Shown: positions 33,194-53,794 of the stretch, one piece after another | Layout of the letters: every line of letters starts with the position of its first letter | How positions within the stretch are numbered: position 1 is the stretch's first letter | DNA from: a virus | Lineage: Duplodnaviria; Caudoviricetes | Virus record (IMG/VR): IMGVR_UViG_3300021137_000021 | Span: 1-54,028 of that record | Strand: one strand, 5' to 3' | DNA length: 54,028 bases | Made by a program: the position numbers and the translations under genes | The notes under the pieces: generated by a model | Database searches by the model: none | What the model saw: the letters and a program-made list of their open reading frames with translations, nothing else | What the model was told of the DNA's origin: nothing

Positions 33194-33772
33194 TTAGTAG
33201 GTCGTAGGGTCAAACGCAGAGTAGTTTGCGTAGTGCTGGAACTGTGAGTCATTCACCATTTCTTCTGCGTTTACCTGGTTGCAGGTAACCTGAAGCAATG
33301 TGTACTTGTCCCCAATAATACCTTGAGGGGAGACTCGGATAGGGGTAAAAACTTCATCCCGAAATACGATGCGGTCACGCATGTACTCAATAGGGTTCTT
33401 TTCTACAAGGGAAAGCTCTGGAACATTGTTGGCATTAGCCCCATAGAAATTGAGGTTGTCCTCCACAATGTCCACATTAAGGGTGATTGTGAGCTGGTTG
33501 GTGTTGTAGAAACCACGGTCAGATTGGGTAGTAACACCACGTTCTACGTGGGCATTGACCACAGGAATAATAAGGGGAGTCTTCCACATACGACCTGTGC
33601 CAGTGCTGGCGCCTGTATCGTAGATAGGGTCTACGACAGTATTGACTTGGTCAAAGAGCCACCAAGCCACAGTTGTACCCACAGTGTTAACAAGCTCAGT
33701 CGTAGTTCCAGATACAAAAGAGGAACGTTCGAACTGTATGTCAAACCGGCCTTGTCTATTTTCTCCACGCAT
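33194..33772 (-). CDS. Head closure / neck protein
   Basis: VDPIYD, RDRIVFRDEVF; position before tail-completion genes; TACACT 6 nt before ATG (leaderless-like). Confidence 0.55.
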   Translation of the reverse strand: MRGENRQGRFDIQFERSSFVSGTTTELVNTVGTTVAWWLFDQVNTVVDPIYDTGASTGTGRMWKTPLIIPVVNAHVERGVTTQSDRGFYNTNQLTITLNVDIVEDNLNFYGANANNVPELSLVEKNPIEYMRDRIVFRDEVFTPIRVSPQGIIGDKYTLLQVTCNQVNAEEMVNDSQFQHYANYSAFDPTTY

Positions 33773-35355: not shown

Positions 35356-36375
35356 CTAGTTGTTCTGGGACTGGTAGTTATCTAGAGTACTACCTTGGTT
35401 GTACTGAGAAGGTGAAAGAAGTATACCAAACTGTGTGGCAGTCTGGGTACTGGAGGCTGTATAGGTAATTGGGCTTCCTATAGGGGTTGTAAGGGAGTCA
35501 GAGTACGGGGTGACCGTAATTGTATTCCCGCCCGATGTAACGACCTTTAAGCTGGCAGCAACGGCTGATATGGCGGTACGTAGTACCGTTGTTACGGCAT
35601 TTGCTACAGACTGATAAACATAGACAAAGGCTGGGTAGCTGACGCTACCTCCCTGGCATGTTGAACAGCCACAGGTATGGGTATATGAGGAAGTACACTG
35701 CGTGTAATAGTAATAGTACGCACAGGAATAAGAGCATGGGGTGTAGGTAGAGCATACCCCATAATGGTTGTAGCAATATGCGACGTAGTATAGGTAAGAA
35801 CCTCCGCCGTATGTAGCGTAATAGTTACATATGGTACCTGTAATACATACGTAATATGAGGTTCCTCCACCCGTACATCCACAGCCAGCACCTACAGGTC
35901 CAACTGTCTGAGATGAAGCACAGGCGCTACATGTTTGACATCCACAGGTGTAGTAGTAGACCGTGTTAACTACCTCTTGGCCAGCTGCTACGCCAAACCA
36001 GTTACCGCTATCGGTAATCCACTGAGCAGCTCCAGTGCCGTTAGTTGTGGCACCAACAGTCTGGATATTGCTAGCGCTACCAGTATCAATAGCGGCAATA
36101 GAGTAGTTAGAGGCAGAGTCATTGGATTGAGCCTGGGATCCATTGGCAAACCAAGTACCTCGGGTAGCACTCCAAGCTTGCCCGCTATCGGCTGTGCCTA
36201 GATTGCCTGAGGTTGTACGGTTAAAGGAGTCAATGACAGAGGCCTTAAACCATTGCTTCCATTGACCGCCAACTTTAATAAAGGCTGAAGTAGCCCCATG
36301 CCATGCTCCGCTTACCTTTACAAGGATACCAATGCTTGTACCCTGTCCGCCATTTACATTAACTTTACCTGGCAT
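35356..36375 (-). CDS. Fibre/adhesin with Cys/Tyr-rich insertion (start MPGKV at 36375)
   Basis: VKVSGAW/IKVGGQWK anchor, DSFNR...DNY lectin-like sandwich interrupted by a ~100-aa segment with 16 Cys. Confidence 0.75.
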   Translation of the reverse strand: MPGKVNVNGGQGTSIGILVKVSGAWHGATSAFIKVGGQWKQWFKASVIDSFNRTTSGNLGTADSGQAWSATRGTWFANGSQAQSNDSASNYSIAAIDTGSASNIQTVGATTNGTGAAQWITDSGNWFGVAAGQEVVNTVYYYTCGCQTCSACASSQTVGPVGAGCGCTGGGTSYYVCITGTICNYYATYGGGSYLYYVAYCYNHYGVCSTYTPCSYSCAYYYYYTQCTSSYTHTCGCSTCQGGSVSYPAFVYVYQSVANAVTTVLRTAISAVAASLKVVTSGGNTITVTPYSDSLTTPIGSPITYTASSTQTATQFGILLSPSQYNQGSTLDNYQSQNN

Positions 36376-37307
36376 TACTGATACACAATCCAGATGTCTC
36401 CATCGTTGCCCTGGCCTGTTGTTGGTGCTGTTGTAGAGACCCATGTATTGCGGACAACGCCTAGAGAAGTTGAGGCGGCTGTTACTGAAGCATTTGCTGT
36501 TGCAAGATAAACTGTTGGGGTCTGCCATGAAAGGGCAGAACCATTGCTGCTAAGAACTGTACCAGCTCCACCAATACCCAAGCGACCTACAGCTGAGGCG
36601 CCCGTTCCCACCACAAGATCACCAGCAGCACTAACTGTGCTTAGTGGAATCTTTGTAGTATCTGTTGGGGTACCCCAAGCAACTGAGGTGCCGTTCATAA
36701 TAAGAGACTGACCGGCAGCCCCTTTAGCAAGGTTAGTTACGGTGGCATTACCTGAACCAATAAGAAGATCTCCCGCAGCTGTTACAGTTGAAAGAGGGAT
36801 CTTGGTATTGGCGTTATTATTGGCGGCAGTCGTAGCAGCCGTAAGGGTATTGTAGTCAGTGCTATTAACATAGAGAACGTTACTAGAACCCACAGCTGGA
36901 ATACCAGAGGAGTTAACATTGAATCCCAATACAGAGCCAGAGGTGTAGGTCTCAATAAGGTTAGCTGTTCCTGAGCCTACCTTTAATACAAGGCCTTTTG
37001 TAGAGCTAGTGGTAATAGTGCTTCCACCGGTAATGCTGACATATGGACTATTAGCCACACCATTTACCAAGCCATACTCAATGTTATTGAGGCGATCGCC
37101 CAAGGTAGACCAACCGGTAGTCTTAGCAAAAGTTCCTGAGTAGGTAGAAATCAGGGGGCTTTGATTGGTCAGGGCAGAACCAAGGGTTGTCTCAATAGCA
37201 GTAATCTCAACCTGTAGTGAGTTTACGTTATCAGCCAAAACGGTGCTGACAAGGTCAACCTCTGGTTGGTAGGTTTTAACCTGATTTGGATATGAAGCTG
37301 TTGCCAT
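36375..37307 (-). CDS. Fibre protein
   Basis: Two 'AAGDL..G.G.....L..G..G..L..NG....W.TP' repeats; C-terminal APTTGQGNDGDIWIVY. Confidence 0.75.
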   Translation of the reverse strand: MATASYPNQVKTYQPEVDLVSTVLADNVNSLQVEITAIETTLGSALTNQSPLISTYSGTFAKTTGWSTLGDRLNNIEYGLVNGVANSPYVSITGGSTITTSSTKGLVLKVGSGTANLIETYTSGSVLGFNVNSSGIPAVGSSNVLYVNSTDYNTLTAATTAANNNANTKIPLSTVTAAGDLLIGSGNATVTNLAKGAAGQSLIMNGTSVAWGTPTDTTKIPLSTVSAAGDLVVGTGASAVGRLGIGGAGTVLSSNGSALSWQTPTVYLATANASVTAASTSLGVVRNTWVSTTAPTTGQGNDGDIWIVYQ

Positions 37308-37338
37308 GGGACTCCTTCGTTATGGCCCTAACTATAGC

Positions 37339-37500
37339 CTAAGCTGTGGGGGTTTGTGGGGCTGAGTTGGCTGCAAGTAAGGCTTCGTAATCAGCCTTGA
37401 GCATGGAGGTATATTCCCCGTTGCCTCGGTCAATAATCGCGTAAGTTATTGCTACATTAGTCAAAGGGTCGGTTATATCTTGAAAGGTTACATTGTCCAT
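37339..37500 (-). CDS. Cassette A partner mini-protein, 53 aa (putative fibre chaperone; not in ORF track)
   Basis: MDNVTFQDITDPLTNVAITYAIIDRGNGEYTSMLKADYEALLAANSAPQTPTA; GCGGAG RBS inside the upstream SAEL codons. Confidence 0.78.
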   Translation of the reverse strand: MDNVTFQDITDPLTNVAITYAIIDRGNGEYTSMLKADYEALLAANSAPQTPTA

Positions 37501-37501
37501 A

Positions 37502-38707
37502 TTACAACTCCGCACTAAATGCTAGGTATCCGCCAGCAACATTGTTATTTAGCAATGTATAAGGGCGATACTGGGTCAAACCGCTGGCAACTGGTGCGTA
37601 TAATCTTGCACCGTCTATACCGCTTCCACCGCCAGGAATGGTCGGAGCAGCGTTGAGTGCAGTAAGCGTTACACCATCCCATAAAGCAAGATATGAAACT
37701 GTTGTTGGTGATTCAACCGCTGTTGGGCCTACACGCATTGGAACTGGGAAGAATATAGTTACTTCTGCCTGAGTTGTTGAATAAGCACTTCCTTGAGCCA
37801 AAGGTGGGTATAGGCCATTCAAAGAAGTTCCATTGCGCTTGTAGTAGTACCTCTGACAGGCATTTAACTCCCCCTGAAGTGTTCCGCCAGCGCGGGAGAA
37901 GGCAGTTGCTACTGAGCCTAATTCCAACTGAACCTGAGCAACCGTCAATGTTGCACTAGCCGACATTGCAGCCGTTGTTGTGAAATAAACACGAACTGTT
38001 TTGGCATTTGAAGGAATAGTTGTTGTCGCGGTTTTTTTCACAAGCGAGGATGTTGTTGATACTGTTTGTGTAAGCCCACTATAAGTTCCAGCATTCCAAG
38101 CAGCATCAACTGTTGTTGAATATTCAATGTGAATATCTACGCTTTGAGCAGCCGATGTAGCCAAATATGCGGAAACTGTAACTGTTTGACCAGCCAAGTA
38201 AATTGAGTTGAGCGTTTCAATTGCTTGTAAGATGATTGGGTTTCCGCTTGTTGCGCAAGTATAAGTTATTGAGTTTTGCGCGTTGCTAGGAACAAGGGAA
38301 GTATTTTGAGAAAATGTGCCGCCGCCAGAAAATGTGGCTACAACCCATCGGTCAGCCAAATAAACTCCAAGGCTTGAGGTAGAAGTTCCTCGTTGCCAAA
38401 TGTCAAAGTTTCCGTTGATGAGCCAGTTCTTGCCACCAGCCAAAGAAGGCCCTGCCCAAGCAACGCCTGTGCTGGCAGAAGAGTTTGCAACGAGTGTTGT
38501 GCCGTCAGCGCCTACGTTTAAAGTGCCTACGGTGCTAGCACCAGTGCCTAGAGCTAGATCGCCTTTGGCGGTATAGGTAGTTACTGTTGCAGCGTTAGCT
38601 ACATCGGCTACTGAGTGGGTATGTGGGCCTACGCCAACAGGTACCCATTGGTTATTGACCCCATCCCAAACGTAAGCGGGACGACTGGTATTACTAAAAT
38701 TTGCCAT
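37502..38707 (-). CDS. Receptor-binding/fibre protein, cassette A
   Basis: GKNWLINGNFDIWQRGT...ADRW, CBM-like sandwich, QLELGSVATAFSRAGGTLQGELNACQRYY, ends SAEL. Confidence 0.8.
   Translation of the reverse strand: MANFSNTSRPAYVWDGVNNQWVPVGVGPHTHSVADVANAATVTTYTAKGDLALGTGASTVGTLNVGADGTTLVANSSASTGVAWAGPSLAGGKNWLINGNFDIWQRGTSTSSLGVYLADRWVVATFSGGGTFSQNTSLVPSNAQNSITYTCATSGNPIILQAIETLNSIYLAGQTVTVSAYLATSAAQSVDIHIEYSTTVDAAWNAGTYSGLTQTVSTTSSLVKKTATTTIPSNAKTVRVYFTTTAAMSASATLTVAQVQLELGSVATAFSRAGGTLQGELNACQRYYYKRNGTSLNGLYPPLAQGSAYSTTQAEVTIFFPVPMRVGPTAVESPTTVSYLALWDGVTLTALNAAPTIPGGGSGIDGARLYAPVASGLTQYRPYTLLNNNVAGGYLAFSAEL
38475..38516. repeat. 42-bp direct repeat, identical to 44198..44239
   Basis: gcagaagagtttgcaacgagtgttgtgccgtcagcgcctacg in cassettes A and E; diverged copy near 41043-41083. 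Confidence 0.9.
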
Positions 38708-38880
38708 TATTCACCTGCCTGTGGTGTAGAAGAGTTGGCTGCAAGTGTGGCTAGATAAGCTTGATACATAGAATTAGAAGGGTCGGTGGGAATTTGCCAA
38801 CCATCTGAGCGAATGATTAACGATGTTGATGGCTGACCTGTCATTGGGTCAGTTGGGATTGTGTATGTGTATTCGTTCAT
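38707..38880 (-). CDS. Cassette B partner mini-protein, 57 aa (not in ORF track)
   Basis: MNEYTYTIPTDPMTGQPSTSLIIRSDGWQIPTDPSNSMYQAYLATLAANSSTPQAGE. Confidence 0.8.
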   Translation of the reverse strand: MNEYTYTIPTDPMTGQPSTSLIIRSDGWQIPTDPSNSMYQAYLATLAANSSTPQAGE

Positions 38881-39959
38881 TATAACTCCGCACTAAACTC
38901 TAAGTATGCTGATGTTGAGTTTTCGGTTCGCAGATAGCAACCATAAGCAACTGTTGCTCCCGATACTCCCGCAATTAAACCTGCTGAATCAGCAGTTGTT
39001 CCATCACCTTGTAAAATTGGAGCAGAAGTACCGATTGCAGAATCTCCTTGGCGAACTGTAAATGAACCAGAAGCGTTGTAAGCAGGTACGCCTCTCATCG
39101 TTGTTCTCAAGGGAAACACAAATTGACTTTGAGTTGTATTCAAATTTTGCCCAATAGCAATACGCCAGTATGCAGCCGCACTTCCAGCGGTAAAGCGTTG
39201 ATAGTACCTCTGGCAGAGGCTTAACTCTCCTTGGAGTGTGCCTGATGCTGTGGTGAAAGGTGTGGCTACCGAACCTGCTTCTAACTGCACGCCCCAAAAA
39301 TCTACATTTACGCCAGTTGTAGGCGTGTACAAGAGTAAACCTATTGAACTTCCTGCGCCAATAGTTTTTCCAACTACAGATGGCAAAGTTGTTGTATAAG
39401 TAATTCTTTGCCAAGAAGTTGTCAGGTTGTAATTTATATTTGTTGCCAAGACATTTGCGGACCCGCCTGAACCAAAGTATTGGTAAATCTGTGCTTGCGC
39501 TCCTGAAACTGCACTTGCGGCTTTAGCCCAAAATGAATAAGTAACCGTTTGCCCCGAAAATGTGCGCACATCCTCAACTGGTTGTTCAAAATATGTAGCA
39601 GATGTTGTGGCATTTACTCTTGCAAAATATGGAGCGGAGTATCCTGTGATTGGTGCTTGAGCGGCAGAGGGGGATGATGAGTAATCAAAGGCAATTTGTG
39701 TAACAGTCGTTGATGCTGAACCATAGTTATACACACGCCAGCGGTCTAATGTGTAATTCAAGCCCGTTCCACTTGGATTGACTGTTCCCCCACGTTGCGC
39801 CAAAGCAAAATCGCCATTGATGATCTTATTCTTGCCAGCAGCATACTGAGCGGGGTTCTCAAAAGCATAACCGTTACTTTGGTTGGTATCAACAGTAAGT
39901 ACTTGACCATTAGTACCTGAAGTACCTAAGATATTTGAGTTGTCTCTAGCTCTAGTCAT
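38880..39959 (-). CDS. Receptor-binding/fibre protein, cassette B
   Basis: GKNKIINGDFALAQRG...DRW; QLEAGSVATPF...QGELSLCQRYY; ends SAEL. Confidence 0.8.
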   Translation of the reverse strand: MTRARDNSNILGTSGTNGQVLTVDTNQSNGYAFENPAQYAAGKNKIINGDFALAQRGGTVNPSGTGLNYTLDRWRVYNYGSASTTVTQIAFDYSSSPSAAQAPITGYSAPYFARVNATTSATYFEQPVEDVRTFSGQTVTYSFWAKAASAVSGAQAQIYQYFGSGGSANVLATNINYNLTTSWQRITYTTTLPSVVGKTIGAGSSIGLLLYTPTTGVNVDFWGVQLEAGSVATPFTTASGTLQGELSLCQRYYQRFTAGSAAAYWRIAIGQNLNTTQSQFVFPLRTTMRGVPAYNASGSFTVRQGDSAIGTSAPILQGDGTTADSAGLIAGVSGATVAYGCYLRTENSTSAYLEFSAEL

Positions 39960-40139
39960 TTATGCACCTGCCTGTGGTGTAGAAGAGTTGGATACGAGTG
40001 TGTCTTTATTGAGGTATGCCTGATAATCGGCATTTGATGGGTCGGTTGGTATCCAAGCACCATCTGAGCGAACAATAACTTCCGTAGAAGGCTGACCAGT
40101 AAAAGGGTCAGTTGGGATTGTGTATGTGTAAGTTTCCAT
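39960..40139 (-). CDS. Cassette C partner mini-protein, 59 aa (not in ORF track)
   Basis: METYTYTIPTDPFTGQPSTEVIVRSDGAWIPTDPSNADYQAYLNKDTLVSNSSTPQAGA. Confidence 0.8.
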   Translation of the reverse strand: METYTYTIPTDPFTGQPSTEVIVRSDGAWIPTDPSNADYQAYLNKDTLVSNSSTPQAGA

Positions 40140-41866
40140 TACAACTCCGCACTTGCAACAAAGGATGCTTGAATGTTATATCCTGGGGTAGACCAGTTGC
40201 CAGAAGCATTGTAAAAATTATAACTTCCCGTACTAATGATAGAAGCACCAAAGGTTCCATTGCTTCCTGACGATGCAGTAAATGAACCGTTAGTAAATGT
40301 TGGCGCAGTTCGCATTGTTACAGGAAAATAAAACGCTCCGCCAGTAATACCAGCAGTGATTGTGTTTCCTGCCATCTGGTTTGTTGCTACATAGCAATAC
40401 CTCTGACAAGCGGCTAACTCTCCTTGGAGTGTGCCACCTGCTCGGCTGAATGGGGTGGCTACTGAGCCAGCCTCAAGTTGCAATCCCCAAAGTTGAATTG
40501 TTACCGCAGCCGATGTTCCGCAGTATCCATAAATTTGAACTTTGCTGCTAGGGCCGAGTGTCTTACCTGAAATAGATGGCATCGCTCCTGTGTAGGTAAA
40601 ACGCTGCCAAGTGGTAGTCAAGTTAAATGCTGGTTGTGGGCCAGCAACTTGAGTTGAGCCACCTGTTCCAAAGTTTTGATTGAAACCAAAGCCGTAACCA
40701 ATAGTTCCAGAAGTTACTCTTCCCCAGAATGAGAAAGTAAAAGTTTGTCCAGCGAGTGTACGCACATCTTCTATGGAGTGTGCCATATCGGTATATGAAC
40801 CGCCTGAGCTTTTGGCAATCTGCAAATAGTAAGCAGGTTCATATCCAGAAATCGGATTGCCAGGAGTAAATGCTTGCTGGCTTATCGTCATTGTTGAATC
40901 AGTACCGTTGAAGAATCTATCTGCTACCGCACCATAAGTTCCTGTGTAGGTAGTTCCACGCTGCCAAATATCCATACCACCGTTGATGACAAAGTTCTTT
41001 CCAGCCGCTACTGAAGGCCCTGCCCAAGATAAACCTGTGCTGGCAGAAGAGTTTGCCACGAGTGTTGAACCGTCAGCTCCGACATTGAGTGCTGTTTCAC
41101 TTCCGGATCCGGTTCCAACCAGGATGTCGCCCTTGGCTGTGAACTGAGAAAGCGGGATATATCTAGCATCAGATTGGGATTGGGTATATGTATTAGTAAC
41201 GCCCATAGTGATGGTGTTAAATACTTCTACGGTATCTCCAGTTACTGTGGCTTGAGTTAATGTGATTGAGGTACCGTTAGTGGCGGTGTAGTCAACACCC
41301 TTAACAATCAAGATACCATTGACATAGACTTCTTCATAACCCGCTGTATAGGCAAGAGTAGTTGTGCCATCATCTGCTAGGCCTGAGAGAACGGTAGTTC
41401 CTCCTGTAGGAGTTTTCTTCCAGCGTACTAGCTGTAGACCTTGAGTGTTTCCCGCCGTATTAACCCAGACCATACCAGGGGTATAGGTTGTTGGTTCTGT
41501 AGTCTGAGCAATGTTATTGCTAGACATCTGAACAGCTGGATAAGAGACCACTGTGAGGATATCTGAAACGGCAAGTGGGTTAGCTAAAACAATGGTAGAG
41601 CCGGTAGTGGCTGTATAGTCAGATCCACGTACTAGTAGAACACCATTGAGGTAGACATTCTCCCCGCCTAGTGGATAGGTAAGGGTAGTTCCATTATCGG
41701 AAGCTCCAGAGAGGGTAGTCTCCCCACCTGTCCCTGTGTGGGTCCAGTAGAGTTCATAGGCTCCGCCCAATACTAAGTTCCAAGTAGTACCGTCATAGGT
41801 CCATTGCCTACCGCCCTGGTAGATGGACGTGCCAGCTACTGGGGACGAGGGGAACGAAATGGCCAC
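40139..41866 (-). CDS. Receptor-binding/fibre protein, cassette C
   Basis: Two 'V(Y)LNG..L..G.DYTAT.G' N-terminal domains, then GKNFVINGGMDIWQRGT...QGELAACQRY...SAEL. Confidence 0.8.
   Translation of the reverse strand: MAISFPSSPVAGTSIYQGGRQWTYDGTTWNLVLGGAYELYWTHTGTGGETTLSGASDNGTTLTYPLGGENVYLNGVLLVRGSDYTATTGSTIVLANPLAVSDILTVVSYPAVQMSSNNIAQTTEPTTYTPGMVWVNTAGNTQGLQLVRWKKTPTGGTTVLSGLADDGTTTLAYTAGYEEVYVNGILIVKGVDYTATNGTSITLTQATVTGDTVEVFNTITMGVTNTYTQSQSDARYIPLSQFTAKGDILVGTGSGSETALNVGADGSTLVANSSASTGLSWAGPSVAAGKNFVINGGMDIWQRGTTYTGTYGAVADRFFNGTDSTMTISQQAFTPGNPISGYEPAYYLQIAKSSGGSYTDMAHSIEDVRTLAGQTFTFSFWGRVTSGTIGYGFGFNQNFGTGGSTQVAGPQPAFNLTTTWQRFTYTGAMPSISGKTLGPSSKVQIYGYCGTSAAVTIQLWGLQLEAGSVATPFSRAGGTLQGELAACQRYCYVATNQMAGNTITAGITGGAFYFPVTMRTAPTFTNGSFTASSGSNGTFGASIISTGSYNFYNASGNWSTPGYNIQASFVASAEL
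40412..40462. repeat. 51-bp direct repeat, identical to 42390..42440
   Basis: ggctaactctccttggagtgtgccacctgctcggctgaatggggtggctac in cassettes C and D; related copies near 37865, 39222 and 43573. Confidence 0.9.
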
Positions 41867-41922
41867 GGTTTACTCCTTCGGGAACTGCCTAATAATATCA
41901 GAAAGTAGGTGTATTACAGGTC

Positions 41923-42093
41923 TTAAGCTTGTGGCTGTGGGGCTGAGTTGGCTGCAAGTGTGGCTAGATAGGCTTGGTAGTCTGAGTTGGCAGGGTCGGA
42001 AGGAATGAACCAGCCATCTGAGCGCTGGATTACTGTGGTTGAAGGCTGACCTGTCATTGGGTTAGTTGGGATTGTGTAGGTATATTCGTTCAT
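41923..42093 (-). CDS. Cassette D partner mini-protein, 56 aa (not in ORF track)
   Basis: MNEYTYTIPTNPMTGQPSTTVIQRSDGWFIPSDPANSDYQAYLATLAANSAPQPQA. Confidence 0.8.
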   Translation of the reverse strand: MNEYTYTIPTNPMTGQPSTTVIQRSDGWFIPSDPANSDYQAYLATLAANSAPQPQA

Positions 42094-43055
42094 TATAACT
42101 CCGCACTAGCCGTTACATTGCTTCCAAAGTAAGCGCCATTAGTGCTGCTATTAGCAGTTCGCGCTTCATAAAATCCAGTTGGTGTTAAATCTGAAGCAGT
42201 ACCAGAGGATGCAGGAAAACCATTGTTATTAGTGCTTGTAAAAGTAACTGCTGGAGTGCCTCTCATTGTTACTGGCAATCTGCACCAAGCATAATAAGTT
42301 ACACCTGAAGTAACATTTCCCGAGAAAAAGATATTGTCATAAGCAGAATATCCATTTGCTCCGCTGAACCAGTAATACCGCTGGCACAAGGCTAACTCTC
42401 CTTGGAGTGTGCCACCTGCTCGGCTGAATGGGGTGGCTACCTTGCCCTGCTCTAGTTGTATTCCCGTAATTCGGACTGTAACGCCTGAGCCTTGAGCAGT
42501 GTCAGGAATAAAACCTACGCGCAATCCAACTGCATCTGATGGAACTGTAAATGTTCCTGTAAATCTTGTCCATCCAGAAGCGTTTGAGGCATTGCCAAAA
42601 GCGTTAATTGCCACATTGGTTGTTTGTGAGCCTAAAGCATCTGTGCTGTTTGAGTAATCAATGTAAGAATAAAGAATGCCAGCATATCCACCTGTTAATT
42701 TTACATAAGCAGATATAGTAAATGTTTGCCCACGCATAGGCTTTACAACTGCTTGCTCTAATGCTTGATAATACTGAGCAAACGCAGAAGCGCCACTTGT
42801 CACATATTTCAGCGCATACTGCACACCAATCGCAGATGGCAAATCAGAAGTTTCTTGAGAAATTGTTGTTGTTCCAATAAGATTTGCATACCATCTATCA
42901 GCCGTTGAATATGTCGCTTGAACAGTTGATGTTGTTGTGGCTCTCTGCCAAATGTCAAACCCACCGTTAGCCACATAATTTTTGCCAGCCACAAACGGAG
43001 CTACTGCCCCACCTGTGTTCTGCTCAACCGTTGAGGTTAATTGCGCTCTGCTCAT
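42093..43055 (-). CDS. Receptor-binding/fibre protein, cassette D
   Basis: GKNYVANGGFDIWQR...ADRW; QGELALCQRYY; ends SAEL. Confidence 0.8.
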   Translation of the reverse strand: MSRAQLTSTVEQNTGGAVAPFVAGKNYVANGGFDIWQRATTTSTVQATYSTADRWYANLIGTTTISQETSDLPSAIGVQYALKYVTSGASAFAQYYQALEQAVVKPMRGQTFTISAYVKLTGGYAGILYSYIDYSNSTDALGSQTTNVAINAFGNASNASGWTRFTGTFTVPSDAVGLRVGFIPDTAQGSGVTVRITGIQLEQGKVATPFSRAGGTLQGELALCQRYYWFSGANGYSAYDNIFFSGNVTSGVTYYAWCRLPVTMRGTPAVTFTSTNNNGFPASSGTASDLTPTGFYEARTANSSTNGAYFGSNVTASAEL

Positions 43056-43222
43056 TATTCACCTGCCTGTGGGATAGAAGATTGGAGTGTGCTTGCAGCT
43101 TGCATAGCATCGTAAATGCTTTTTGGCATTGAAGTAAATGTGCCGTCAGCCCGATTGATAAATGCGTATGAAACGGTTGTTCCGTCTGGTTGAGGAATAT
43201 CTTGATAAGTAATTGTGTCCAC
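43055..43222 (-). CDS. Cassette E partner mini-protein, 55 aa, GTG start (not in ORF track)
   Basis: MDTITYQDIPQPDGTTVSYAFINRADGTFTSMPKSIYDAMQAASTLQSSIPQAGE; homologous to the cassette A partner. Confidence 0.78.
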   Translation of the reverse strand: MDTITYQDIPQPDGTTVSYAFINRADGTFTSMPKSIYDAMQAASTLQSSIPQAGE

Positions 43223-44592
43223 TATAACTCCGCACTAAATCCTAGGTAAGCGCCAGAACTTGTATTTGTTATGTTGCCAATCTGACCTTGGCTCCAAGCG
43301 GAATCTGAACCGCCCTTTCCATATGTAACTCCTACGGCATTTGAATTGCCATAATATGAAGCACTCCAAGTTCCAGACGAATAAGAATTTACACCATAAG
43401 TTTGAACTTGCAAGCCTGAACTACCGCCATCAAGAACTAATGCAGTAGTCCTCATTGGTACTGGCGTTGGGATAGTAAAGAACCAGTTTGTTGTGCTAAC
43501 TGCGGGGGCAAATGCAAGAATAGAACCAGAAGAACCAGCAGCCGTATAACGGGTGTAATACCTCTGGCAAGCGGCTAACTCCCCCTGAAGTGTGCCACCA
43601 GCGCGGGAGAAGGTTGTAGCGGCTGCGCCTAGTTCAAGTTGCGCCCTTGACCAAGTGATGTAATCGCCATTGTTCATACCGTTTGCATAAAGAGCAATAC
43701 GCAAAGTTTTGGCAGTTGATGGGATTGAAAAAGTATAAACAATTTGCTGGAAAGAACCTGATGTAGTTACGGATTTGATTGCCGTTCCTGTCAAGGTTGT
43801 ATAAGTTCCAAGAAAAATATCGTCAGTATTGGTTGAATAGTCAATACCAATCGTAGGGGATTTGCCTGAAGTACCAGCAACCCAAGCAGACAAAGTAACA
43901 GTCTGACCCGCAAGCGGTAATGTGTTGAAAGTTTCAACCACTTGATACATTGTATTTCCAACTGAGTTGGCAGAAGCAGTTACGCGCAAGCCGTACTTCT
44001 GACCAGCCTGAACCAATGATGTATCTTGAGTGACTGTTCCAGCCGCATTGAAGTAGTTAGTCCAACGGTCTGCGGTGTATTGAGGTACACCTGCTGAGAT
44101 GCTGAAAGAAGTTCCTCTTTGCCAAATATCCATTACGCCATTGATGAGAGTGTTTTTGCCAGCAGCCTGATTGCCAGTCCAAGACACCCCACCACCAGCA
44201 GAAGAGTTTGCAACGAGTGTTGTGCCGTCAGCGCCTACGCCGAGGTTGGTAACGGATCCAGATCCGGTCGCAACGATTGTGTCGCCCTTAGCTGTAACAG
44301 TTGAGAGAGGAATTGCATTAGCAATAGCAAAAGTGTTTTGGGAATTGATAGTGACCAAATCACCAACTACCAGCGCATTGCTGAGTGTTACTGAGGTTCC
44401 ATTAGCGGCGGTGTAGTCTACACCACGTTCTAATAGAACCCCATTAACGAATAACTGCTCCCCACCTACAGCGTAGGAGAGGGTGACTGAAAAGCCATCC
44501 ACGCCTGAAAGCGTGGTCTCTCCACCCACGGCGGTATAGCGCCATGTACGAGGGCTATTCTGCGTGGAAGCTGTAGTGTAGGAACGAGTCAT
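43222..44592 (-). CDS. Receptor-binding/fibre protein, cassette E
   Basis: One 'VNGVLLERGVDYTA' domain, GKNTLINGVMDIWQRGT, QGELAACQRYY, ends SAEL. Confidence 0.8.
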   Translation of the reverse strand: MTRSYTTASTQNSPRTWRYTAVGGETTLSGVDGFSVTLSYAVGGEQLFVNGVLLERGVDYTAANGTSVTLSNALVVGDLVTINSQNTFAIANAIPLSTVTAKGDTIVATGSGSVTNLGVGADGTTLVANSSAGGGVSWTGNQAAGKNTLINGVMDIWQRGTSFSISAGVPQYTADRWTNYFNAAGTVTQDTSLVQAGQKYGLRVTASANSVGNTMYQVVETFNTLPLAGQTVTLSAWVAGTSGKSPTIGIDYSTNTDDIFLGTYTTLTGTAIKSVTTSGSFQQIVYTFSIPSTAKTLRIALYANGMNNGDYITWSRAQLELGAAATTFSRAGGTLQGELAACQRYYTRYTAAGSSGSILAFAPAVSTTNWFFTIPTPVPMRTTALVLDGGSSGLQVQTYGVNSYSSGTWSASYYGNSNAVGVTYGKGGSDSAWSQGQIGNITNTSSGAYLGFSAEL

Positions 44593-44596
44593 TTAA

Positions 44597-44839
44597 TTAT
44601 CCCTTGAGGGCTGCGATTTCTTCTGGGGTAAGGCCAAGCTTTGCAAGCTTGTCTGCTGCTGAAGCGGCTGCTGCTGCCTTAGCCGCATCTGCCTCTGCCT
44701 GAGCTGCTTGCTGAGCTGCAAATGCTTCAGATTGAGCCTTCTGAGCTGCAATCTCATCTGCTGTCATATCACGTGTAGTAGAGATGCTGGTTGAGCAATC
44801 TACTTCCACGACTTGTGGAACTGTGGCTGTATCTGCCAT
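44597..44839 (-). CDS. Small Ala-rich helical fibre-associated protein
   Basis: RDMTADEIA...KLAKLGLTPEEIAAL; AAGGAG RBS. Confidence 0.75.
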   Translation of the reverse strand: MADTATVPQVVEVDCSTSISTTRDMTADEIAAQKAQSEAFAAQQAAQAEADAAKAAAAASAADKLAKLGLTPEEIAALKG

Positions 44840-44865
44840 TTTGTATCTCCTTCGTACGTTGGATT

Positions 44866-44888
44866 AAATTATACCACGTCTGGTATAA
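44866..44888 (-). promoter_or_regulatory. Extended -10 promoter overlapped by a palindrome
   Basis: Minus strand TGGTATAAT within TTATACCA-gacg-TGGTATAA. Confidence 0.6.
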
Positions 44889-44893
44889 AGCTG

Positions 44894-45391
44894 TTAGATT
44901 CCGTAGAGAGTGAATACAGAATATTGAGCAATATTTTGCCCCGATGTTGCCGTATCAAAACTAAGGGTTGTAATGGCAGCGGTACTAGACCAAAGTTCAG
45001 CAGAAAAAGATGGATATGCGGTGCTTGAATTGGCTTCTGCCACTACATCTATTAAAACTTGTTTGTAAGTTGAGATTGTATAATTAGGAATGTAAATACT
45101 GCAAGCGGTGAAAATATTTGCAGTATTAGTTCCATTTATTGTTGCTATGGCGCGATTGGTGCTTCGGTTTGAGCTTGTGCTTGAACCTGTTCCATTCCCA
45201 AAAGTATTAGAAATATTGGCTTGACTGCCATTAAAATACATACCTAAAGAATCATAAGTGCTATATGTGCTGGCAGCAGATATATCTATTTTTAAATCTG
45301 TGTATGTTTGAGGGATTGAAGAAAAAGTTATTGTTCCCAATCCACCTGAACCAACAACGACAGATGCAATTTTAGTTAGTGTATTAGCCAT
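44894..45391 (-). CDS. Beta-sandwich fibre-associated protein ('SSIPQTYTDL' paralog)
   Basis: ITFSSIPQTYTDL...IPNY...W..TAAIT...LYGI. Confidence 0.75.
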   Translation of the reverse strand: MANTLTKIASVVVGSGGLGTITFSSIPQTYTDLKIDISAASTYSTYDSLGMYFNGSQANISNTFGNGTGSSTSSNRSTNRAIATINGTNTANIFTACSIYIPNYTISTYKQVLIDVVAEANSSTAYPSFSAELWSSTAAITTLSFDTATSGQNIAQYSVFTLYGI

Positions 45392-45392
45392 T

Positions 45393-45920
45393 TTATGCCG
45401 CCGTTATTCCGTAGAGGGTTGCTGTTGTTCCTGCAACATAAACTGTTCCATAAGATTGACCGAAAGATATTGCGTTAATGGCGGCGGTATTTCTCCATGT
45501 AGAAACTGCCATATCTACAAATCCGCCGCTACTATAATCTGCTCCGCCCCTGCCAAGCATAGTTTTATATCCGATTGTGTTAGCGTAATTTAATACAGTG
45601 AAAACTACGCTACCGAAAATATTTGCTCCGTCTGACCCTCCGGAAGTTGAACCAGCCCAACCAAAGTTTGCATTGTTTGTGCGAGATGAACCTACGCCCG
45701 AACCATTGCCAAAAATGTATGTATAAGAATAACTGCTAGTGCCATCATTGTTGAATTGCGGAATGATTTGGCTATATGGAGTGCTGTAAGAATTGCGTCC
45801 ATAAACAACACACACTAAATCAGTATATGTTTGAGGAATTGAAGAAAATGTAATAGTTGATGTGCTTGACCCGCTAACGGTATATGTCGCAATAGGTGTA
45901 TATGTTGATTGAGCAGCCAT
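45393..45920 (-). CDS. Beta-sandwich fibre-associated protein ('SSIPQTYTDL' paralog)
   Basis: Same motif set as its neighbours. Confidence 0.75.
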   Translation of the reverse strand: MAAQSTYTPIATYTVSGSSTSTITFSSIPQTYTDLVCVVYGRNSYSTPYSQIIPQFNNDGTSSYSYTYIFGNGSGVGSSRTNNANFGWAGSTSGGSDGANIFGSVVFTVLNYANTIGYKTMLGRGGADYSSGGFVDMAVSTWRNTAAINAISFGQSYGTVYVAGTTATLYGITAA

Positions 45921-45929
45921 GATTTTCTC

Positions 45930-47225
45930 CTATGCAATTCCGTAAAGGGCAATTACCGAACCGGCAGCGAATCCTGTTTGAGATGTGCCGCCGAATTGAC
46001 TAATCGTAGCAATAGGATCATTTGTTAGCATTACAGTAGAAGATAAACCTACTGCGCCAATGCTGTTGGAATCGTAACCACCGAACATTCTGACAGTTTT
46101 ATTTTTATTTGGATTTGAATAATCTAAGATATCGATAACATAAGCACCGAATACATTTGATGAGAGATAAGCATTTGCAAATCCTATAGATAAATCTCCG
46201 TAGTTAATGCCGGTGTAAGATTGAGAATAACCTGTGCCATTGCCAAAAAGTGAATGCCCTGCAAATTGATATGCGGTGCTGCCGTTGAATCTAAAGAATG
46301 GATTTTCATTTACGCCACCGCTGCCGGTGTATGTACCTCGCACATAAACTCGTAATTGCAAATGAGTGTAGTTTTGGGGAATATTGGTAAATGAAATTGT
46401 GCCGCCCGATGGCGAAGTTACTGTTGCAATACTTGCATAAGAATTGGCACTTGTTACCGCGCTTGATGTAGCCGATGAAGCTGTGCCAAGAGAGTTGATT
46501 GCTTTAGCTGTGAAAGTAGTTGAGTTACCTAGAGTCAATGGAGCAACAATGGGACTGCCGCTTCCATAAGTCGTATTACTACTGTTATCTGTAACAGCGT
46601 AAGTTATTGCATTATCAGAGCTAGTAGGAGTGAAAGATACTGCCGCAAACCCTGCTTGATCTGTTACAGCTCCGATTGTAGGAGCTACCGGAGAAGTAGT
46701 TGAATATTGCGGGGCAACTCCATAAAGCGTAATAGTTGTATATTGCGCAAAAGTACCAAATGTTCCAATAGTTAATTGAGTGATAGGTGCAGTAGTGCGA
46801 ATAAGCCCTGCCCCCAATGTTTGAACAGAAAATGCTGCATTTTGTTCCGCAACGATATCACTTACTATTTGCTTGAAATTACTAGATGTGTAGTTAGCAA
46901 TTTTAATCGTAGCAATACTGAATGAATTTGCAGTTGAATTGGCTTCATTTATTTGACCAGCATAATAAAAATCACCACTACTGCTGTATGCTTGATCGGA
47001 ATAAACACCTGAGCCGTTACCATATAAACGAATGCTTGCGTAAGAGTTGAAACCGCTTAAACCGCCTACTTGCATATACATTTGATTAGTAACTGTTGAG
47101 TCCAAACCTCTGCCAGACACAACTATTTTTAAATCAGTAAATCCTTGCGGAATATTATTAAAGACGACATTACCGCCACCGCTGCCGACAGTTTGTGTGA
47201 AAATGGGTTGCATAAATACAGACAT
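45930..47225 (-). CDS. Two 'IPQ' beta-sandwich domains joined by an FN3-like domain
   Basis: FNNIPQGFTDL...LYGV; APTIG...FTP...FTAKAINSLG; FTNIPQNYTHL...LYGI. Confidence 0.75.
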   Translation of the reverse strand: MSVFMQPIFTQTVGSGGGNVVFNNIPQGFTDLKIVVSGRGLDSTVTNQMYMQVGGLSGFNSYASIRLYGNGSGVYSDQAYSSSGDFYYAGQINEANSTANSFSIATIKIANYTSSNFKQIVSDIVAEQNAAFSVQTLGAGLIRTTAPITQLTIGTFGTFAQYTTITLYGVAPQYSTTSPVAPTIGAVTDQAGFAAVSFTPTSSDNAITYAVTDNSSNTTYGSGSPIVAPLTLGNSTTFTAKAINSLGTASSATSSAVTSANSYASIATVTSPSGGTISFTNIPQNYTHLQLRVYVRGTYTGSGGVNENPFFRFNGSTAYQFAGHSLFGNGTGYSQSYTGINYGDLSIGFANAYLSSNVFGAYVIDILDYSNPNKNKTVRMFGGYDSNSIGAVGLSSTVMLTNDPIATISQFGGTSQTGFAAGSVIALYGIA

Positions 47226-47227
47226 TG

Positions 47228-47761
47228 TTATGCCCCTGTCGTATTAGAAACAGAGACCCCATAAAGGTCAATTCTAGAATATTGAACGAATGAACCGGCT
47301 GAAGGAGTAATAGTTAAACTAGTAATCGCTGCTGTACTTAACCATATTCCTGACCATAAGCCAAGCAAACCTGCACTTGTATTGAAATCTGCTCCGTTAA
47401 TTGCTTGAACAGTTTTATATTTGTGAGTGTTTGTATAATCTAAAATATCACCAACGCTTATGCCATAAGTATTTGCGGTATCCGTATTTCCGCCAACCCA
47501 GCCAAGGTCAGTAGACCCTGTAAAACTTGATGAAAATGGGCTTCCCGAATTAGTGCCATTACCGCCTATGTAATGTGTATAGTAATTTCCTACCGTGAAA
47601 TCACTATTGAAATTGAGTGGCATATTTGTTCCGGAAGAACCTGATGATCTTCCAAAAGCGCGAATATGTAAATGGGTGAATGTTTGAGGAATTGAAGAAA
47701 ATGTAATGGAAGCTGCTCCACCTGAACCGACAGTAGAACTAGCAATAGGGTACATACTCAT
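47228..47761 (-). CDS. Beta-sandwich fibre-associated protein ('SSIPQT' paralog)
   Basis: ITFSSIPQTFTHL...ILDY...W..TAAITSL...LYGV. Confidence 0.75.
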   Translation of the reverse strand: MSMYPIASSTVGSGGAASITFSSIPQTFTHLHIRAFGRSSGSSGTNMPLNFNSDFTVGNYYTHYIGGNGTNSGSPFSSSFTGSTDLGWVGGNTDTANTYGISVGDILDYTNTHKYKTVQAINGADFNTSAGLLGLWSGIWLSTAAITSLTITPSAGSFVQYSRIDLYGVSVSNTTGA

Positions 47762-48333
47762 TGACCTACGCTCCTAACGCCATATAGAGCCGCACTTGAA
47801 CCTGCTACAAAATTGCCATAAGTGGCTACTTGCAAAGTAGTAATTGCAGATGTTTGCGCCCAAAGACCAATAGTTAAAGCAGATACCCCTGAACCATTGA
47901 CATTTCCGGCGCTTTGGATTAAGCAACTTTTATTTGTCGTAGTGCTGGCATAATTTAATAAATGTGCTTCGCTCATGCCATATAAATTGCTAGGCGCGCC
48001 CGAACTTGGAAATACTGCAACTGTTGATTGGAAGCCGTATGTAGGGCTTGATGTTGTGAATCTATTTGATGCGTAAGAAGAACCATTGCCATACAAACCT
48101 GTTGCGCTAAAATTAGCAGTTCCTGACGCCTGTTGCGTGTATAAAGATAATCCTGAAGGCAGCACTCCACCGATATCTGATCTGCCATATACAACCAAAT
48201 ATAAATCTTGATAGATTTGCGGAATGTTATTGAAATAAATAACAGCCGTAGTGGTAGTTAAAGATTGATATCCAAGAGGAACATAAGCGCCATGAGCGCT
48301 AGCATTAAGAGAAGGAATAAGAGCAGGACTCAT
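47758..48333 (-). CDS. Beta-sandwich fibre-associated protein ('IPQ' paralog; start MSPALIP at 48333)
   Basis: FNNIPQIYQDL...LLNY...W..TSAITTL...LYGV; ATGA overlap with the upstream gene. Confidence 0.72.
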   Translation of the reverse strand: MSPALIPSLNASAHGAYVPLGYQSLTTTTAVIYFNNIPQIYQDLYLVVYGRSDIGGVLPSGLSLYTQQASGTANFSATGLYGNGSSYASNRFTTSSPTYGFQSTVAVFPSSGAPSNLYGMSEAHLLNYASTTTNKSCLIQSAGNVNGSGVSALTIGLWAQTSAITTLQVATYGNFVAGSSAALYGVRSVGQ

Positions 48334-48815
48334 GCGGTGATATCTCCTACCAAGACCCACGTATCTGTGGCTCTCTTAATAAGAGTTGCTGCTGACCACT
48401 GGGCACGAAGCTTTAGCCCAGGGTTTGAATTTAATGTCACCCCGCTTGTTGCTGCTACAGTCACCTGACCAGTGTTTGTTTGAAGTAACTGGATTTGTGT
48501 ACCGATTGGGAAAGCCACTGTAGCGTTTACTGGGATTGTGAGAGTAATAGGTGAGGTGTTGCTAAGCTCAATGTTCTTAGAAACATCTGTCAAAACCAAG
48601 GTATACGATGTTCCTGTTTGGGCGTTTGTCACCATAGTTGGAAATGCGATTTGGTTGACGTATGCGAGAGCTGTCCAGGTAGAAGTACCGTTGCCGATCT
48701 TCATATAACCAGTATCGGTCTCAACGCCTGGCTCACCAGCTGCAAGAATTGGGTTTGTGGAAGTCCAAAGAGCCGCTGTACCACGGCGTAGTTGAATCTG
48801 TGTTTGTACAGCCAT
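48330..48815 (-). CDS. Fibre adaptor with Mtd-N/hyaluronidase-N-like domain
   Basis: QIQLRRGTAALWTSTNPILAAGEPGVETDTGYMKIGNG...W..LAY; C-terminal FPIGTQI...WVLVGD domain. Confidence 0.8.
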   Translation of the reverse strand: MAVQTQIQLRRGTAALWTSTNPILAAGEPGVETDTGYMKIGNGTSTWTALAYVNQIAFPTMVTNAQTGTSYTLVLTDVSKNIELSNTSPITLTIPVNATVAFPIGTQIQLLQTNTGQVTVAATSGVTLNSNPGLKLRAQWSAATLIKRATDTWVLVGDITA

Positions 48816-53205: not shown

Positions 53206-53739
53206 TTAGTTAGATTGTTTAATGTACTTAATTGCGGCCTTTAGAAGTTCTATATTGTCCATAAACCTACCTAAGCCATTATTGCACTGATTACAAAGAA
53301 GTCCCCTTACTTCACCGGTATCGTGGGAATGATCCACACAAGCCTCTGAAGTATCAGAAAACGGAGTTTTGCAGATGGCACAGGATTCCTCCTGATCTTT
53401 CCACATCTCCTGAAACTGTTCCCACTCAATACCGTATTTACTTCTACGATTATGTGTAGATATGCATTTTCTACAGCTTCTAGAGCCATCCGATTTAATT
53501 CTAGTGTTCTCTTCGTTGTATTCATGACCATTTGCACAATGGGTCTTATTCTTATTCCAAGTTCCTATAGTATCTGATTCAGGTATTCCTTTACGCTTTC
53601 TTTGCCAATTCATTCGGCAAATCTTGCAAATTACCTTACCAGCTAATCTAGCCCCTTTGGGATATGTATAAGCAGTTTCTTCTGTAACCATATGTCCGTT
53701 AGAACATATACTGCCAATATTCAATTTTATTCTTGCCAT
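53206..53739 (-). CDS. Free-standing homing endonuclease, endonuclease VII-type domain (start MARIK at 53739)
   Basis: Two C.NGH...CxxC zinc modules, then KYGI...Q...CAIC...VDHSHDTGEVRGLLCNQCNNGLG. Confidence 0.88.
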   Translation of the reverse strand: MARIKLNIGSICSNGHMVTEETAYTYPKGARLAGKVICKICRMNWQRKRKGIPESDTIGTWNKNKTHCANGHEYNEENTRIKSDGSRSCRKCISTHNRRSKYGIEWEQFQEMWKDQEESCAICKTPFSDTSEACVDHSHDTGEVRGLLCNQCNNGLGRFMDNIELLKAAIKYIKQSN

Positions 53740-53744
53740 GTTGC

Positions 53745-53794
53745 CTCCGATACCTAAGAGTGAAGGTTTACCCCTCACCCTTAGTATATCAGAG
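53745..53794 (-). promoter_or_regulatory. RBS-sequestering hairpin containing an extended -10 element
   Basis: CTCTGATAT-A-CTAAGGGTGAGGG pairs with CCTTCACTCTTAG-GTATCGGAG, covering GGAG; TGATATACT lies in the 5' arm. Confidence 0.65.

Follow-up and report, generated by a model that had tools for sequence, protein, structure and literature searches.

In the gp37/gp38 adhesins of T-even phages, conserved structural-core motifs alternate with hypervariable specificity segments, and recombination at conserved tail-fibre motifs has long been established. Klebsiella and other phages carry branched systems of several receptor-binding proteins (RBPs), described as a primary RBP with a branching domain and secondary RBPs with a conserved docking peptide (PMC13352976). 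In the Alteromonas phages V22 and A5, a tail fibre and the cognate chaperone or ‘cap’ encoded downstream of it are shared horizontally by recombination between unrelated phages (PMC10579305). Here, an array of five RBP genes, each followed by a small partner gene, is described at positions 37339-44592 of the IMG/VR record IMGVR_UViG_3300021137_000021 (Caudoviricetes); the window is this whole stretch of 54,028 nt, with an estimated completeness of about 55%. The five paralogous, coupled RBP genes carry conserved blocks which very probably serve as homology patches for general homologous recombination between co-infecting relatives.

The array follows the logic of the T-even adhesins at three conserved blocks (0, 1 and 2), and its breakpoints can be likened to theirs in lying at motifs, although it has no sequence homology to gp37/gp38 (no such Pfam or PHROG match); the resemblance is functional and not one of membership. 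The units of exchange here are entire folded domains, about 115-170 aa in size, rather than loops, and the locus consists of five tandem genes, each with a partner of about 55 aa, encoding a sandwich fold of the carbohydrate-binding module (CBM) type. Like the branched multi-RBP systems (PMC13352976), the array places RBPs side by side, the long-anchored E and C each being followed by RBPs that begin with a short peptide. In contrast to those systems it encodes no depolymerase beta-helix but CBM-like and small beta domains, it has a partner after every RBP, and docking can be proposed only from its genes. The order of a fibre followed by a small accessory gene, with the pair mobile, matches the Alteromonas module described in PMC10579305, whereas the partners here lack a Pfam match and are much more conserved than the domain preceding them. 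A search of the full-text literature on tandem tail-fibre paralogue arrays in freshwater phages and on modular CBM-type RBPs with small partners found no paper on this family, which is not proof of absence. The value of the locus lies in a new family, in how its members are built and in how good the evidence is, rather than in any new mechanism.

The five RBP open reading frames (ORFs) span 320-575 aa, lie on the minus strand and are transcribed in the order E, D, C, B, A; behind each comes its partner ORF (e, d, c, b, a), 53-59 aa long. The original prediction of five co-oriented units, each an RBP ending in SAEL plus a 53-59 aa partner, agrees with the ORF coordinates and the C-termini. The features, with the two variable domains denoted dom1 and dom2, are as follows.

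43222..44592, minus strand: RBP E, 456 aa; N-terminal anchor domain, block 0, CBM-like dom1, block 2, dom2, SAEL
43055..43222, minus strand: partner e, 55 aa, type 1 (‘..FTSM..’ class); begins with a GTG that shares bases with the stop of E
42093..43055, minus strand: RBP D, 320 aa; N-terminal peptide of about 25 aa, CBM-like dom1, block 2, dom2, SAEL
41923..42093, minus strand: partner d, 56 aa, type 2 (‘..IP.DP.NSDYQAYL..’ class); 80% identical to b
41867..41922: intergenic gap d/C, 56 nt, the sole gap in the array; GAAGGAG before the GTG start of C
40139..41866, minus strand: RBP C, 575 aa; duplicated N-terminal anchor domain, blocks 0/1, dom1, block 2, dom2, SAEL
39960..40139, minus strand: partner c, 59 aa, type 2
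38880..39959, minus strand: RBP B, 359 aa; short N-terminus, dom1, block 2, dom2, SAEL
38707..38880, minus strand: partner b, 57 aa, type 2; 96% identical to the partner at locus L104
37502..38707, minus strand: RBP A, 401 aa; ‘PAYVWD..WVPVG’ N-terminus, block 0, dom1, block 2, dom2, SAEL
37339..37500, minus strand: partner a, type 1, 53 aa when read from the ATG at 37500; the ORF listing starts at the GTG at 37515
Block 0 (..VGADGT.LVANSSA..G), minus strand: E 44176..44241, C 41021-41086, A 38453-38518; not in B or D
Block 1 (GKN..NG.F.IWQRG), minus strand: E 44104..44169, D 42930-42995, C 40946-41011, B 39780-39845, A 38378-38443
Block 2 (QLE.G..AT.F..AGGTLQGEL..CQRYY), minus strand: E 43546..43653, D 42363-42470, C 40385-40492, B 39192-39299, A 37835-37942

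In a five-way protein alignment the motifs GKN..NG....QR, GTLQGEL..CQRY and SAEL are invariant, and outside them the five RBPs are 33-46% identical. Comparison with relatives supports the view that the blocks are crossover points and that the domains assort combinatorially at the level of the phage population, with block 2 appearing from these alignments to be the main recombination joint. Relatives were collected by a pattern scan of IMG/VR, in which at least 605 stretches matched and at least 494 of them encode relatives, and by a second pattern scan in metagenome contigs, the relatives from which are among the matches listed. L numbers denote loci or contigs of relatives, and the lake and IMG/VR relatives are all short-read metagenome contigs. 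Over 4095 IMG/VR pairs the identities of dom1 and dom2 are correlated with an r of 0.21. Six non-identical pairs reach 70% identity or more in one domain, and in every one of them the other domain stands at 30% or below, in both directions: L023 and L051 share 99% of dom1 and 30% of dom2, while L002 and L029 share 23% of dom1 and 92% of dom2. Maximum-likelihood change-points for nucleotide identity in the six discordant pairs fall at positions 282, 265, 287, 289, 287 and 287 of the family hidden Markov model (HMM), every one of them in block 2.

The genes of the window itself show the same step. At the protein level the dom2 of A shares 98% identity with L130, the dom2 of B 99% with L104/L103 and the dom2 of C 99% with L105, and the dom1 identities of these pairs are 27%, 41% and 21%, respectively. 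Nucleotide identity rises from about 0.5 to 0.98-0.99 at HMM positions 273, 268 and 278, all within GTLQGEL..CQRYY. RBP E has 76% protein identity to the first RBP of L010 over residues 97-346, from block 0 to exactly CQRYY, and is unrelated to it beyond (nucleotide identity 76% in dom1 and 32% in dom2). Segments were then compared as BLAST high-scoring segment pairs (HSPs) at 85% identity or more. From block 2 to the A/a junction, A matches L130 (37905-37492, 414 nt, 97.3% nucleotide identity); from block 2 to the end of partner b, B matches L103/L104 (39298-38718, 581 nt, 97.9%); and from block 2 to the SAEL junction, C matches L105.

The N-terminal regions move as well. The N-terminus of C is 91% identical in nucleotides to L096 up to block 1, and to L097 until just upstream of block 0. 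The N-terminal stretch of D (HMM 20-79) is 100% identical in RBPs of L100, L129 and L105, in which the domains are unrelated, and the RBP of L104 combines a D-type N-terminus with a foreign dom1, the dom2 of B and partner b. Segments made up of a partner 3’ end plus the next N-terminus are common to the window and L097, L129 and L170. Blocks 0, 1 and 2, the SAEL junction and partner 3’ ends are the places at or close to which long HSPs break off, those at block 1 ending at 40953 (L096), 39790 (L097) and 42991 (L129). When ends of HSPs of 130 nt or more were counted, with contig ends left out, 13 of 20 fell in boundary elements that make up 21% of the array (binomial p 2.6e-5). Homology therefore begins and ends at the blocks, as the original prediction had proposed: the change lies in block 2 in 6/6 IMG/VR pairs and in 3/3 pairs of A, B and C, and the breakpoints are clustered in place of the uniform divergence and unclustered breakpoints of the opposite case. 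This mosaic comparison rests on non-syntenic relatives, there being no syntenic five-cassette relative among 10 loci found via flanking genes; these 10 have no full family RBP within 10 kb, and one (L092) has a partial N-terminal match.

In the proposed mechanism, the conserved blocks would act as homology patches by virtue of staying alike in DNA (85-93% identity across some 85 nt, and exact runs of 40-56 nt). At these patches co-infecting relatives would repeatedly exchange N-terminus, dom1, dom2 and partner by general homologous recombination, with the phage UvsX-like protein or the host RecA as a possible recombinase, and a combinatorial mosaic would be the outcome. Recombination of this general kind is enough to account for the pattern. 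The DNA likeness is widespread in the family. In block 2, many contigs match the array in HSPs about 85 nt long and 85-93% identical, and family-wide there are 375 exact runs of 24 nt or more, with 4066 different-contig pairs compared and five of the runs lying between genes on one contig. The run centres gather at HMM positions 270-289 (238/375) and 60-79 (74/375).

Several observations weigh against this account. Seven of the 20 HSP ends lie off the boundary elements, inside partner genes or about 3-60 nt outside the block definitions, and since conserved patches are where BLAST HSPs tend to end in any case, the 13/20 count resolves crossovers no further than to a block or its immediate surroundings. 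Among partners b, c and d identity is 71-82%, and among the dom2 domains of their RBPs 21-33%; a partner specific to dom2 therefore fits poorly, the three being far more alike than the adjoining domains. In the Logan assembly of the public run X5, contigs end at 38492, 40004, 40441, 41977, 42419, 43584, 44134 and 44212, which are blocks or conserved partner ends, so that for C, D and E these contigs give no independent confirmation that the two sides of a block belong together. Assemblers can switch strains at shared repeats of k-mer length, as the blocks are, and some mosaics could be chimeric.

The original prediction went further and saw in the array a candidate modular host-range shuffling system. 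It is very unlikely that UvsX and endonuclease VII frequently recombine the five cassettes with one another at the blocks during replication, so that each burst would carry new combinations or cassette numbers. The window does encode both a UvsX-like recombinase and endonuclease VII, cassette number varies among relatives, and the exact identities between paralogues on which the proposal leaned are real: 42 nt at 38475/44198 (A-E, in block 0), 51 nt at 40412/42390 (C-D, in block 2) and 24 nt at 37355/41936 (a-d), the last of these joining a type 1 and a type 2 partner. At sites encoding the same residue, 23 of 26 codons are identical between C and D in block 2, against a background of 0.45. 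However, equally long runs join window genes to other phages (56 nt between E and L005, 47 nt between A and L004/L005); the in-array identities are thus typical of the family rather than special to the array, and exchange within it is not needed to explain them. Codon identity in blocks within the array is 0.50-0.54, just above the 0.43-0.45 found between contigs, C-D being exceptional. UvsX and endonuclease VII are, moreover, ordinary T4-like replication and packaging genes by textbook knowledge, and all clear exchange events lie between different contigs, so a dedicated system, or shuffling among the five cassettes of one genome, finds no support here, and neither does the assignment of a recombinase or an effect on host range.

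Reads and contigs from public runs bear on the same question. At least 84% of the sampled words of the array are present in 12 runs, from which it follows that the five-cassette form persists, and X5 Logan contigs span block 2 of A and of B in the window combination with 0 differences. In the public freshwater run X14, one contig of 1365 nt (depth 5.67) passes from 37336 to 44743 across 19 intervening letters of other sequence. The DNA immediately past partner a thereby continues within the 80-aa gene upstream of the array, the ORF of which would be truncated. With only 6 other letters in 466 nt on one side, this contig represents a close relative lacking the five-cassette array; its deletion joint lies at no block. 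Inter-cassette joints in X5 and X21 were considered as chimeras of the array and set aside: their short sides measure 18-51 nt at 90% likeness, joints of this sort often come from other organisms, and they were treated as other family members sharing blocks. Stretches of the array lay uncovered in runs X14, X17 and X21 and carry no weight here.

That assemblers joined co-occurring phages at shared blocks, creating false combinations and possibly one in the window too, is highly improbable. The blocks do hold exact runs of 40-56 nt common to different genomes, the X5 contig ends mark them as branch points in the assembly graph, and the near-identical module sharers L103-L105 and L130 are all metagenome contigs. 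Yet discordance is also seen without shared k-mers (E against L010) and throughout the 4095 pairs, with their r of 0.21. The exchanged modules are 97-98% identical and not 100%, the separate records L103 and L104 carry the same combination, and the X5 contigs cross block 2 of A and B as in the window. Isolate Pseudomonas genomes show a like replacement of dom2: in 4 of 300 pairs, all sharing one locus, identity changes at CQRYY from 75% or more in dom1 to 40% or less in dom2, compared with 21 concordant pairs.

The idea that protein structure and translation signals alone keep the blocks, beside fast-evolving variable segments and with no recombination, is hardly credible: the blocks are indeed first and last CBM strands, linker helix and terminal strand, are conserved across phyla, have junction codons with Shine-Dalgarno motifs and show synonymous identity (0.43-0.45) barely above that of variable domains (0.39-0.42), but rate variation cannot place a dom2 of about 0.98-0.99 nucleotide identity beside a dom1 of about 0.5 in one gene pair, nor produce the opposite patterns of L023/L051 (99/30%) and L002/L029 (23/92%), provided that these contigs are not chimeric. 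The codon comparison on which this idea draws was made at same-residue sites. Between contigs, the near-equal identity in blocks (0.43-0.45) and variable domains (0.39-0.42) means that there is no general selection on block DNA. Synonymous sites outside the blocks are saturated, with codon identity of 0.35-0.41 against a background of 0.39-0.42. The contrast in synonymous divergence inside and outside blocks, put forward earlier as a check, therefore holds for block 2 of C and D, where identity is raised, while the blocks otherwise barely exceed background.

Two specialised mechanisms were also considered. No reverse transcriptase, integrase or invertase was found among the 57 window ORFs scanned with PHROGs, in a record that is about 55% complete, and the statement of the original prediction that the window holds no reverse transcriptase or site-specific recombinase is correct for these ORFs. 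A diversity-generating retroelement was rejected on the lack of a reverse transcriptase and because direct repeats in the region are paralogous blocks only (60-89% identity); a distant reverse transcriptase is possible, the record being incomplete. Invertible segments or a shufflon of the Gin, Cin, Min or Rci type were rejected as well, with no recombinase match, co-oriented cassettes and no real inverted repeats: only six were found, of 17-27 nt and 78-94% complementarity, all imperfect and none meaningful. The locus is best described as ordinary homologous-recombination mosaicism in an uncharacterised modular RBP family, and not as a dedicated shuffling machine.

The junctions between genes are tight. 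RBP and partner overlap in TAATG or TAGTG at four of the five junctions, and at A/a the ATG lies 1 nt past the stop. Between a partner and the next RBP the junction reads ATAATG at e/D and b/A, and TAAATG at c/B, where the genes abut without overlap. On this evidence the array looks like one translationally coupled, operon-like transcription unit. Counts of promoter-like sites (18, with 23.8 expected from shuffles) and of terminator-like sites (10, with 11.4 expected) in the array are uninformative.

All five RBPs end in AGT GCG GAG TT[A/G]. Elsewhere in the five genes AGT, GCG and GAG make up 9%, 11% and 43% of the Ser, Ala and Glu codons, giving a probability of about 1.5e-12 for five-fold sharing. 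The identity of these codons, cited earlier as a sign of a crossover boundary, is thus real and beyond chance, but 46 of 75 SAEL termini in the family close with these twelve bases, which contain a Shine-Dalgarno motif, and they are not specific evidence of crossover. GGAG stands 7-8 nt upstream of every partner start; family members that use GAA for the Glu tend to have TAGGAG or TAAGGAG past the stop codon. Partner ends (..CAGGCAGGTG.ATA) place AGGTG 5-6 nt ahead of the starts of D, B and A, and the uncoupled genes, C and the 310-aa ORF downstream of the array, carry GAAGGAG. The identical SAEL codons are best read as a putative embedded Shine-Dalgarno site combined with ancestry. The junction can still act as a candidate homology patch, because the segments shared with L105 and L130 end there.

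The partners fall into two sequence classes, ‘..FTSM..’ (a and e) and ‘..IP.DP.NSDYQAYL..’ (b, c and d), and in the IMG/VR set 83 of 91 RBPs have an ORF of 43-80 aa next to them. No partner has a Pfam match at E <=0.1. PHROG matches for b, c and d are weak and to families of unknown function, the ESM Atlas returned only clusters of ‘hypothetical protein’, and a PDB profile search gave nothing below E 0.18, with the Mu tail-fibre assembly protein U at E 0.22. Complex prediction of residues 190-320 of D with partner d gave a score of 0.00, a mark of 0.32 and no answer, which is uninformative on binding either way. The partner is probably a chaperone, cap or adaptor belonging to no known family.

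The N-termini of the RBPs are long in E and C, of medium length in A, and a short peptide in D and B, in which only about 25-45 residues, and so almost no N-terminal region, precede the sandwich. The anchors had been taken as unrelated; those of C and E are related, C having two copies of a domain that E has once. The D-type N-terminus is 82-100% identical in L100, L104, L105, L128 and L129, each time after a longer RBP, and the B-type N-terminus is 92% identical in L097. Because long-anchored RBPs regularly precede RBPs with a D-type or B-type short peptide, the units do not appear equivalent, and the array would be better read as two sets of primary and secondary RBPs, E-D and C-B-A, with the 56-nt d/C gap likely separating the two fibre sets. 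The short peptides would then dock onto the long-anchored RBPs.

All five RBPs match the family phrog_4492 ‘tail fiber protein’ (E 2.3e-33, D 7.9e-35, C 2.8e-49, B 1.7e-47, A 5.3e-43) over profile positions of about 690-1096 of 1096, corresponding to dom1, block 2 and dom2. The Pfam family CBM_4_9 is above cutoff for E alone (33.2 bits). An AlphaFold2 model of D, built from an alignment of 87 rows with a predicted local distance difference test score (pLDDT) of 78.8, shows a CBM4-like beta-sandwich at residues 22-205 (dom1). Its best VIA-align match is CBM4-2 (4bj0; Z 15.7, root-mean-square deviation 2.6 over 158 residues), and CBM4, CBM16 and CBM22 modules rank at the top. Comparable matches among phage proteins are CBA120 TSP4 (5w6h) at Z 14.8, also found by Foldseek at E 4e-8, and the fibre of Klebsiella phage Kp7 (7xyc) at Z 13.2; baseplate fibres of phi812 and Pa193 are further structural matches. 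From this fold, dom1 may bind a host glycan.

Block 1 forms the first sandwich strands in the D model, and QLE.G..AT.F, the first half of block 2, the last. In the models GTLQGEL is a short linker helix and CQRYY the first strand of dom2. The dom2 of A, modelled alone (149 rows, pLDDT 89.1), is a compact beta domain of about 115 aa with ..SAEL as the last strand. Attempts to name its fold were abandoned, the best matches (VIA-align Z 5.1, Foldseek E 0.025), to the C-terminal domains of the tailspikes LKA1 gp49 and phi297 gp61, being too weak. As predicted by these models, the primary role of the blocks is structural, as motifs common to a very large family of RBPs.

Among the family members examined, 75 of 92 complete C-termini end in SAEL and all 92 in x[A/S]EL. 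In the IMG/VR and metagenome sets, many of whose contigs are short, one RBP ORF was counted at 107 loci, two at 34, three at 12 and four at two; the window scores six, from its five RBPs and a partial match in the 310-aa protein. A blastn search of the array against 50,697 phage records gave no match. Cultured relatives are distant, with less than 60% identity in 37/37 records and 26-33% by tblastn. The phrog_4492 fibres of Puniceispirillum phage HMO-2011 and Synechococcus phages S-N03 and S-H34 belong to the same family across dom1, block 2 and dom2, but have one or two matching places per record in place of the five-gene array. Still more relatives, at 27-41% identity, are found in prophage-like bacterial loci of many phyla, most of them ending in ..AEL or ..AEI; with such identities and so many phyla, assignment of a host from them was ruled out. 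The chromosomal relatives L176-L255, including about 25 Pseudomonas isolates, have a CBM domain with the same two bounding motifs and a ‘..TADAEL/I’ terminus, and two or three tandem copies occur at several bacterial loci (L240, L252, L254).

Comparison of flanking genes suggests that the array occupies a hypervariable fibre slot, in which relatives carry 0, 2-3 or 5 cassettes. The upstream edge of the slot is marked by the first of the two genes bordering the array.

44597..44839, minus strand: 80-aa gene directly upstream of the array; 52-67% identity in relatives
36375..37307, minus strand: 310-aa fibre-like protein downstream of the array; two weak family-HMM matches

In L092, which has no array, the homologue of the 80-aa gene is directly followed by that of 33194-33772. 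L097 has three cassettes and then the 33194 homologue, and L104 has the 80-aa homologue, two co-oriented cassettes and a third RBP gene on the opposite strand. The closest backbone relatives, L090/L089 (55-90% protein identity), carry other fibres in the slot. In run X21, from a lake in a different study and year, the array was mostly absent over 36800-45000, with depth peaks of 80-240 at the partner genes and blocks 0 and 2; from these peaks, the junction sequences are common to many abundant phages in that run.

The 310-aa protein contains two tandem block-0-like copies (‘TVTAAGDLLIGSG..’ and ‘TVSAAGDLVVGTG..’) and is without CBM, block 2 or SAEL. Its homologues in L090/L091 are 49% identical. 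It may be another fibre that has the shaft motif alone in common with the RBPs. An ORF of 390 aa at 35356-36528 has a middle extremely rich in Cys, Tyr, Thr and Gly (‘..YYYTCGCQTCSACASS..CAYYYYYTQCTSSYTHTCGCSTC..’). As listed, its first 154 nt coincide with the end of the 310-aa ORF, and the true start is for this reason probably further downstream. In L090/L091 a homologue of the 390-aa ORF follows that of the 310-aa protein in a set of 311-aa, 422-aa and 227-aa (phrog_7084) genes, which is partly repeated in a second copy with 567-583-aa and 230-aa homologues.

A second tandem paralogue family lies directly upstream of the array, at 44894-48360, with ORFs at 44894-45391, 45393-45920, 45930-47225, 47228-47761 and 47758-48360. 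Its modules of about 170 aa have a conserved start, ‘..GSGG..ITFSSIPQ.YTDL..’, and the 431-aa ORF contains two; no Pfam or PHROG family match was found for this family. Copy number varies, with at least six genes in L099 and four to six in L092 and L095. ORF 44894-45391 has an internal ‘PSFSAELW’.

All notable genes of the window are on the minus strand, and the PHROG scan identified, besides the UvsX-like recombinase, DNA polymerase, helicases, primase, tail sheath, tail tube, baseplate hub and wedge, several fibre-like proteins and endonuclease VII. From this gene set, the window is a partial genome of a freshwater myovirus. The RBP array is on the same strand as the sheath, tube, baseplate hub and wedge and the other fibre-like genes. 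Genes for recombination and DNA cleavage in the window are as follows.

1058-2119: UvsX-like recombinase (PHROG scan)
8402-8851: HNH endonuclease, between helicase and dNMP kinase genes
53206-53778: endonuclease VII ORF; the N-terminal half also matches HNH families

A bolder form of the recombination account, which is rather unlikely, would make the locus a plug-and-play platform for host recognition. Lake phages would at present be swapping docking peptides, CBMs, tips and mini-partners at four joints, namely blocks 0/1, block 2, the junction formed by SAEL and its Shine-Dalgarno site, and the 3’ end of the partner, with arrays growing and shrinking between 0 and 5 cassettes within near-identical backbones. 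The exchanges would be recent on an ecological timescale, because the moved modules are 97-99% identical. The junction codons would serve both as ribosome-binding sites and as recombination patches, and the partners of about 55 aa would form a new class of adaptor or cap linking one RBP to the next.

RBP genes of this kind are, as a warning, hot spots for assembly breaks and possible chimeras. The locus nevertheless presents a clean case of natural module exchange, in which folded recognition domains about 98-99% identical occur in otherwise unrelated genes with joints of about 100 nt. It gives concrete module boundaries for the study and engineering of RBPs in a widespread family, and the sequence of block 2 offers a marker with which RBP exchange can be tracked in lake time series. 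The host range of uncultured freshwater phages is essentially unmapped, and exchange of these domains may have consequences for it.

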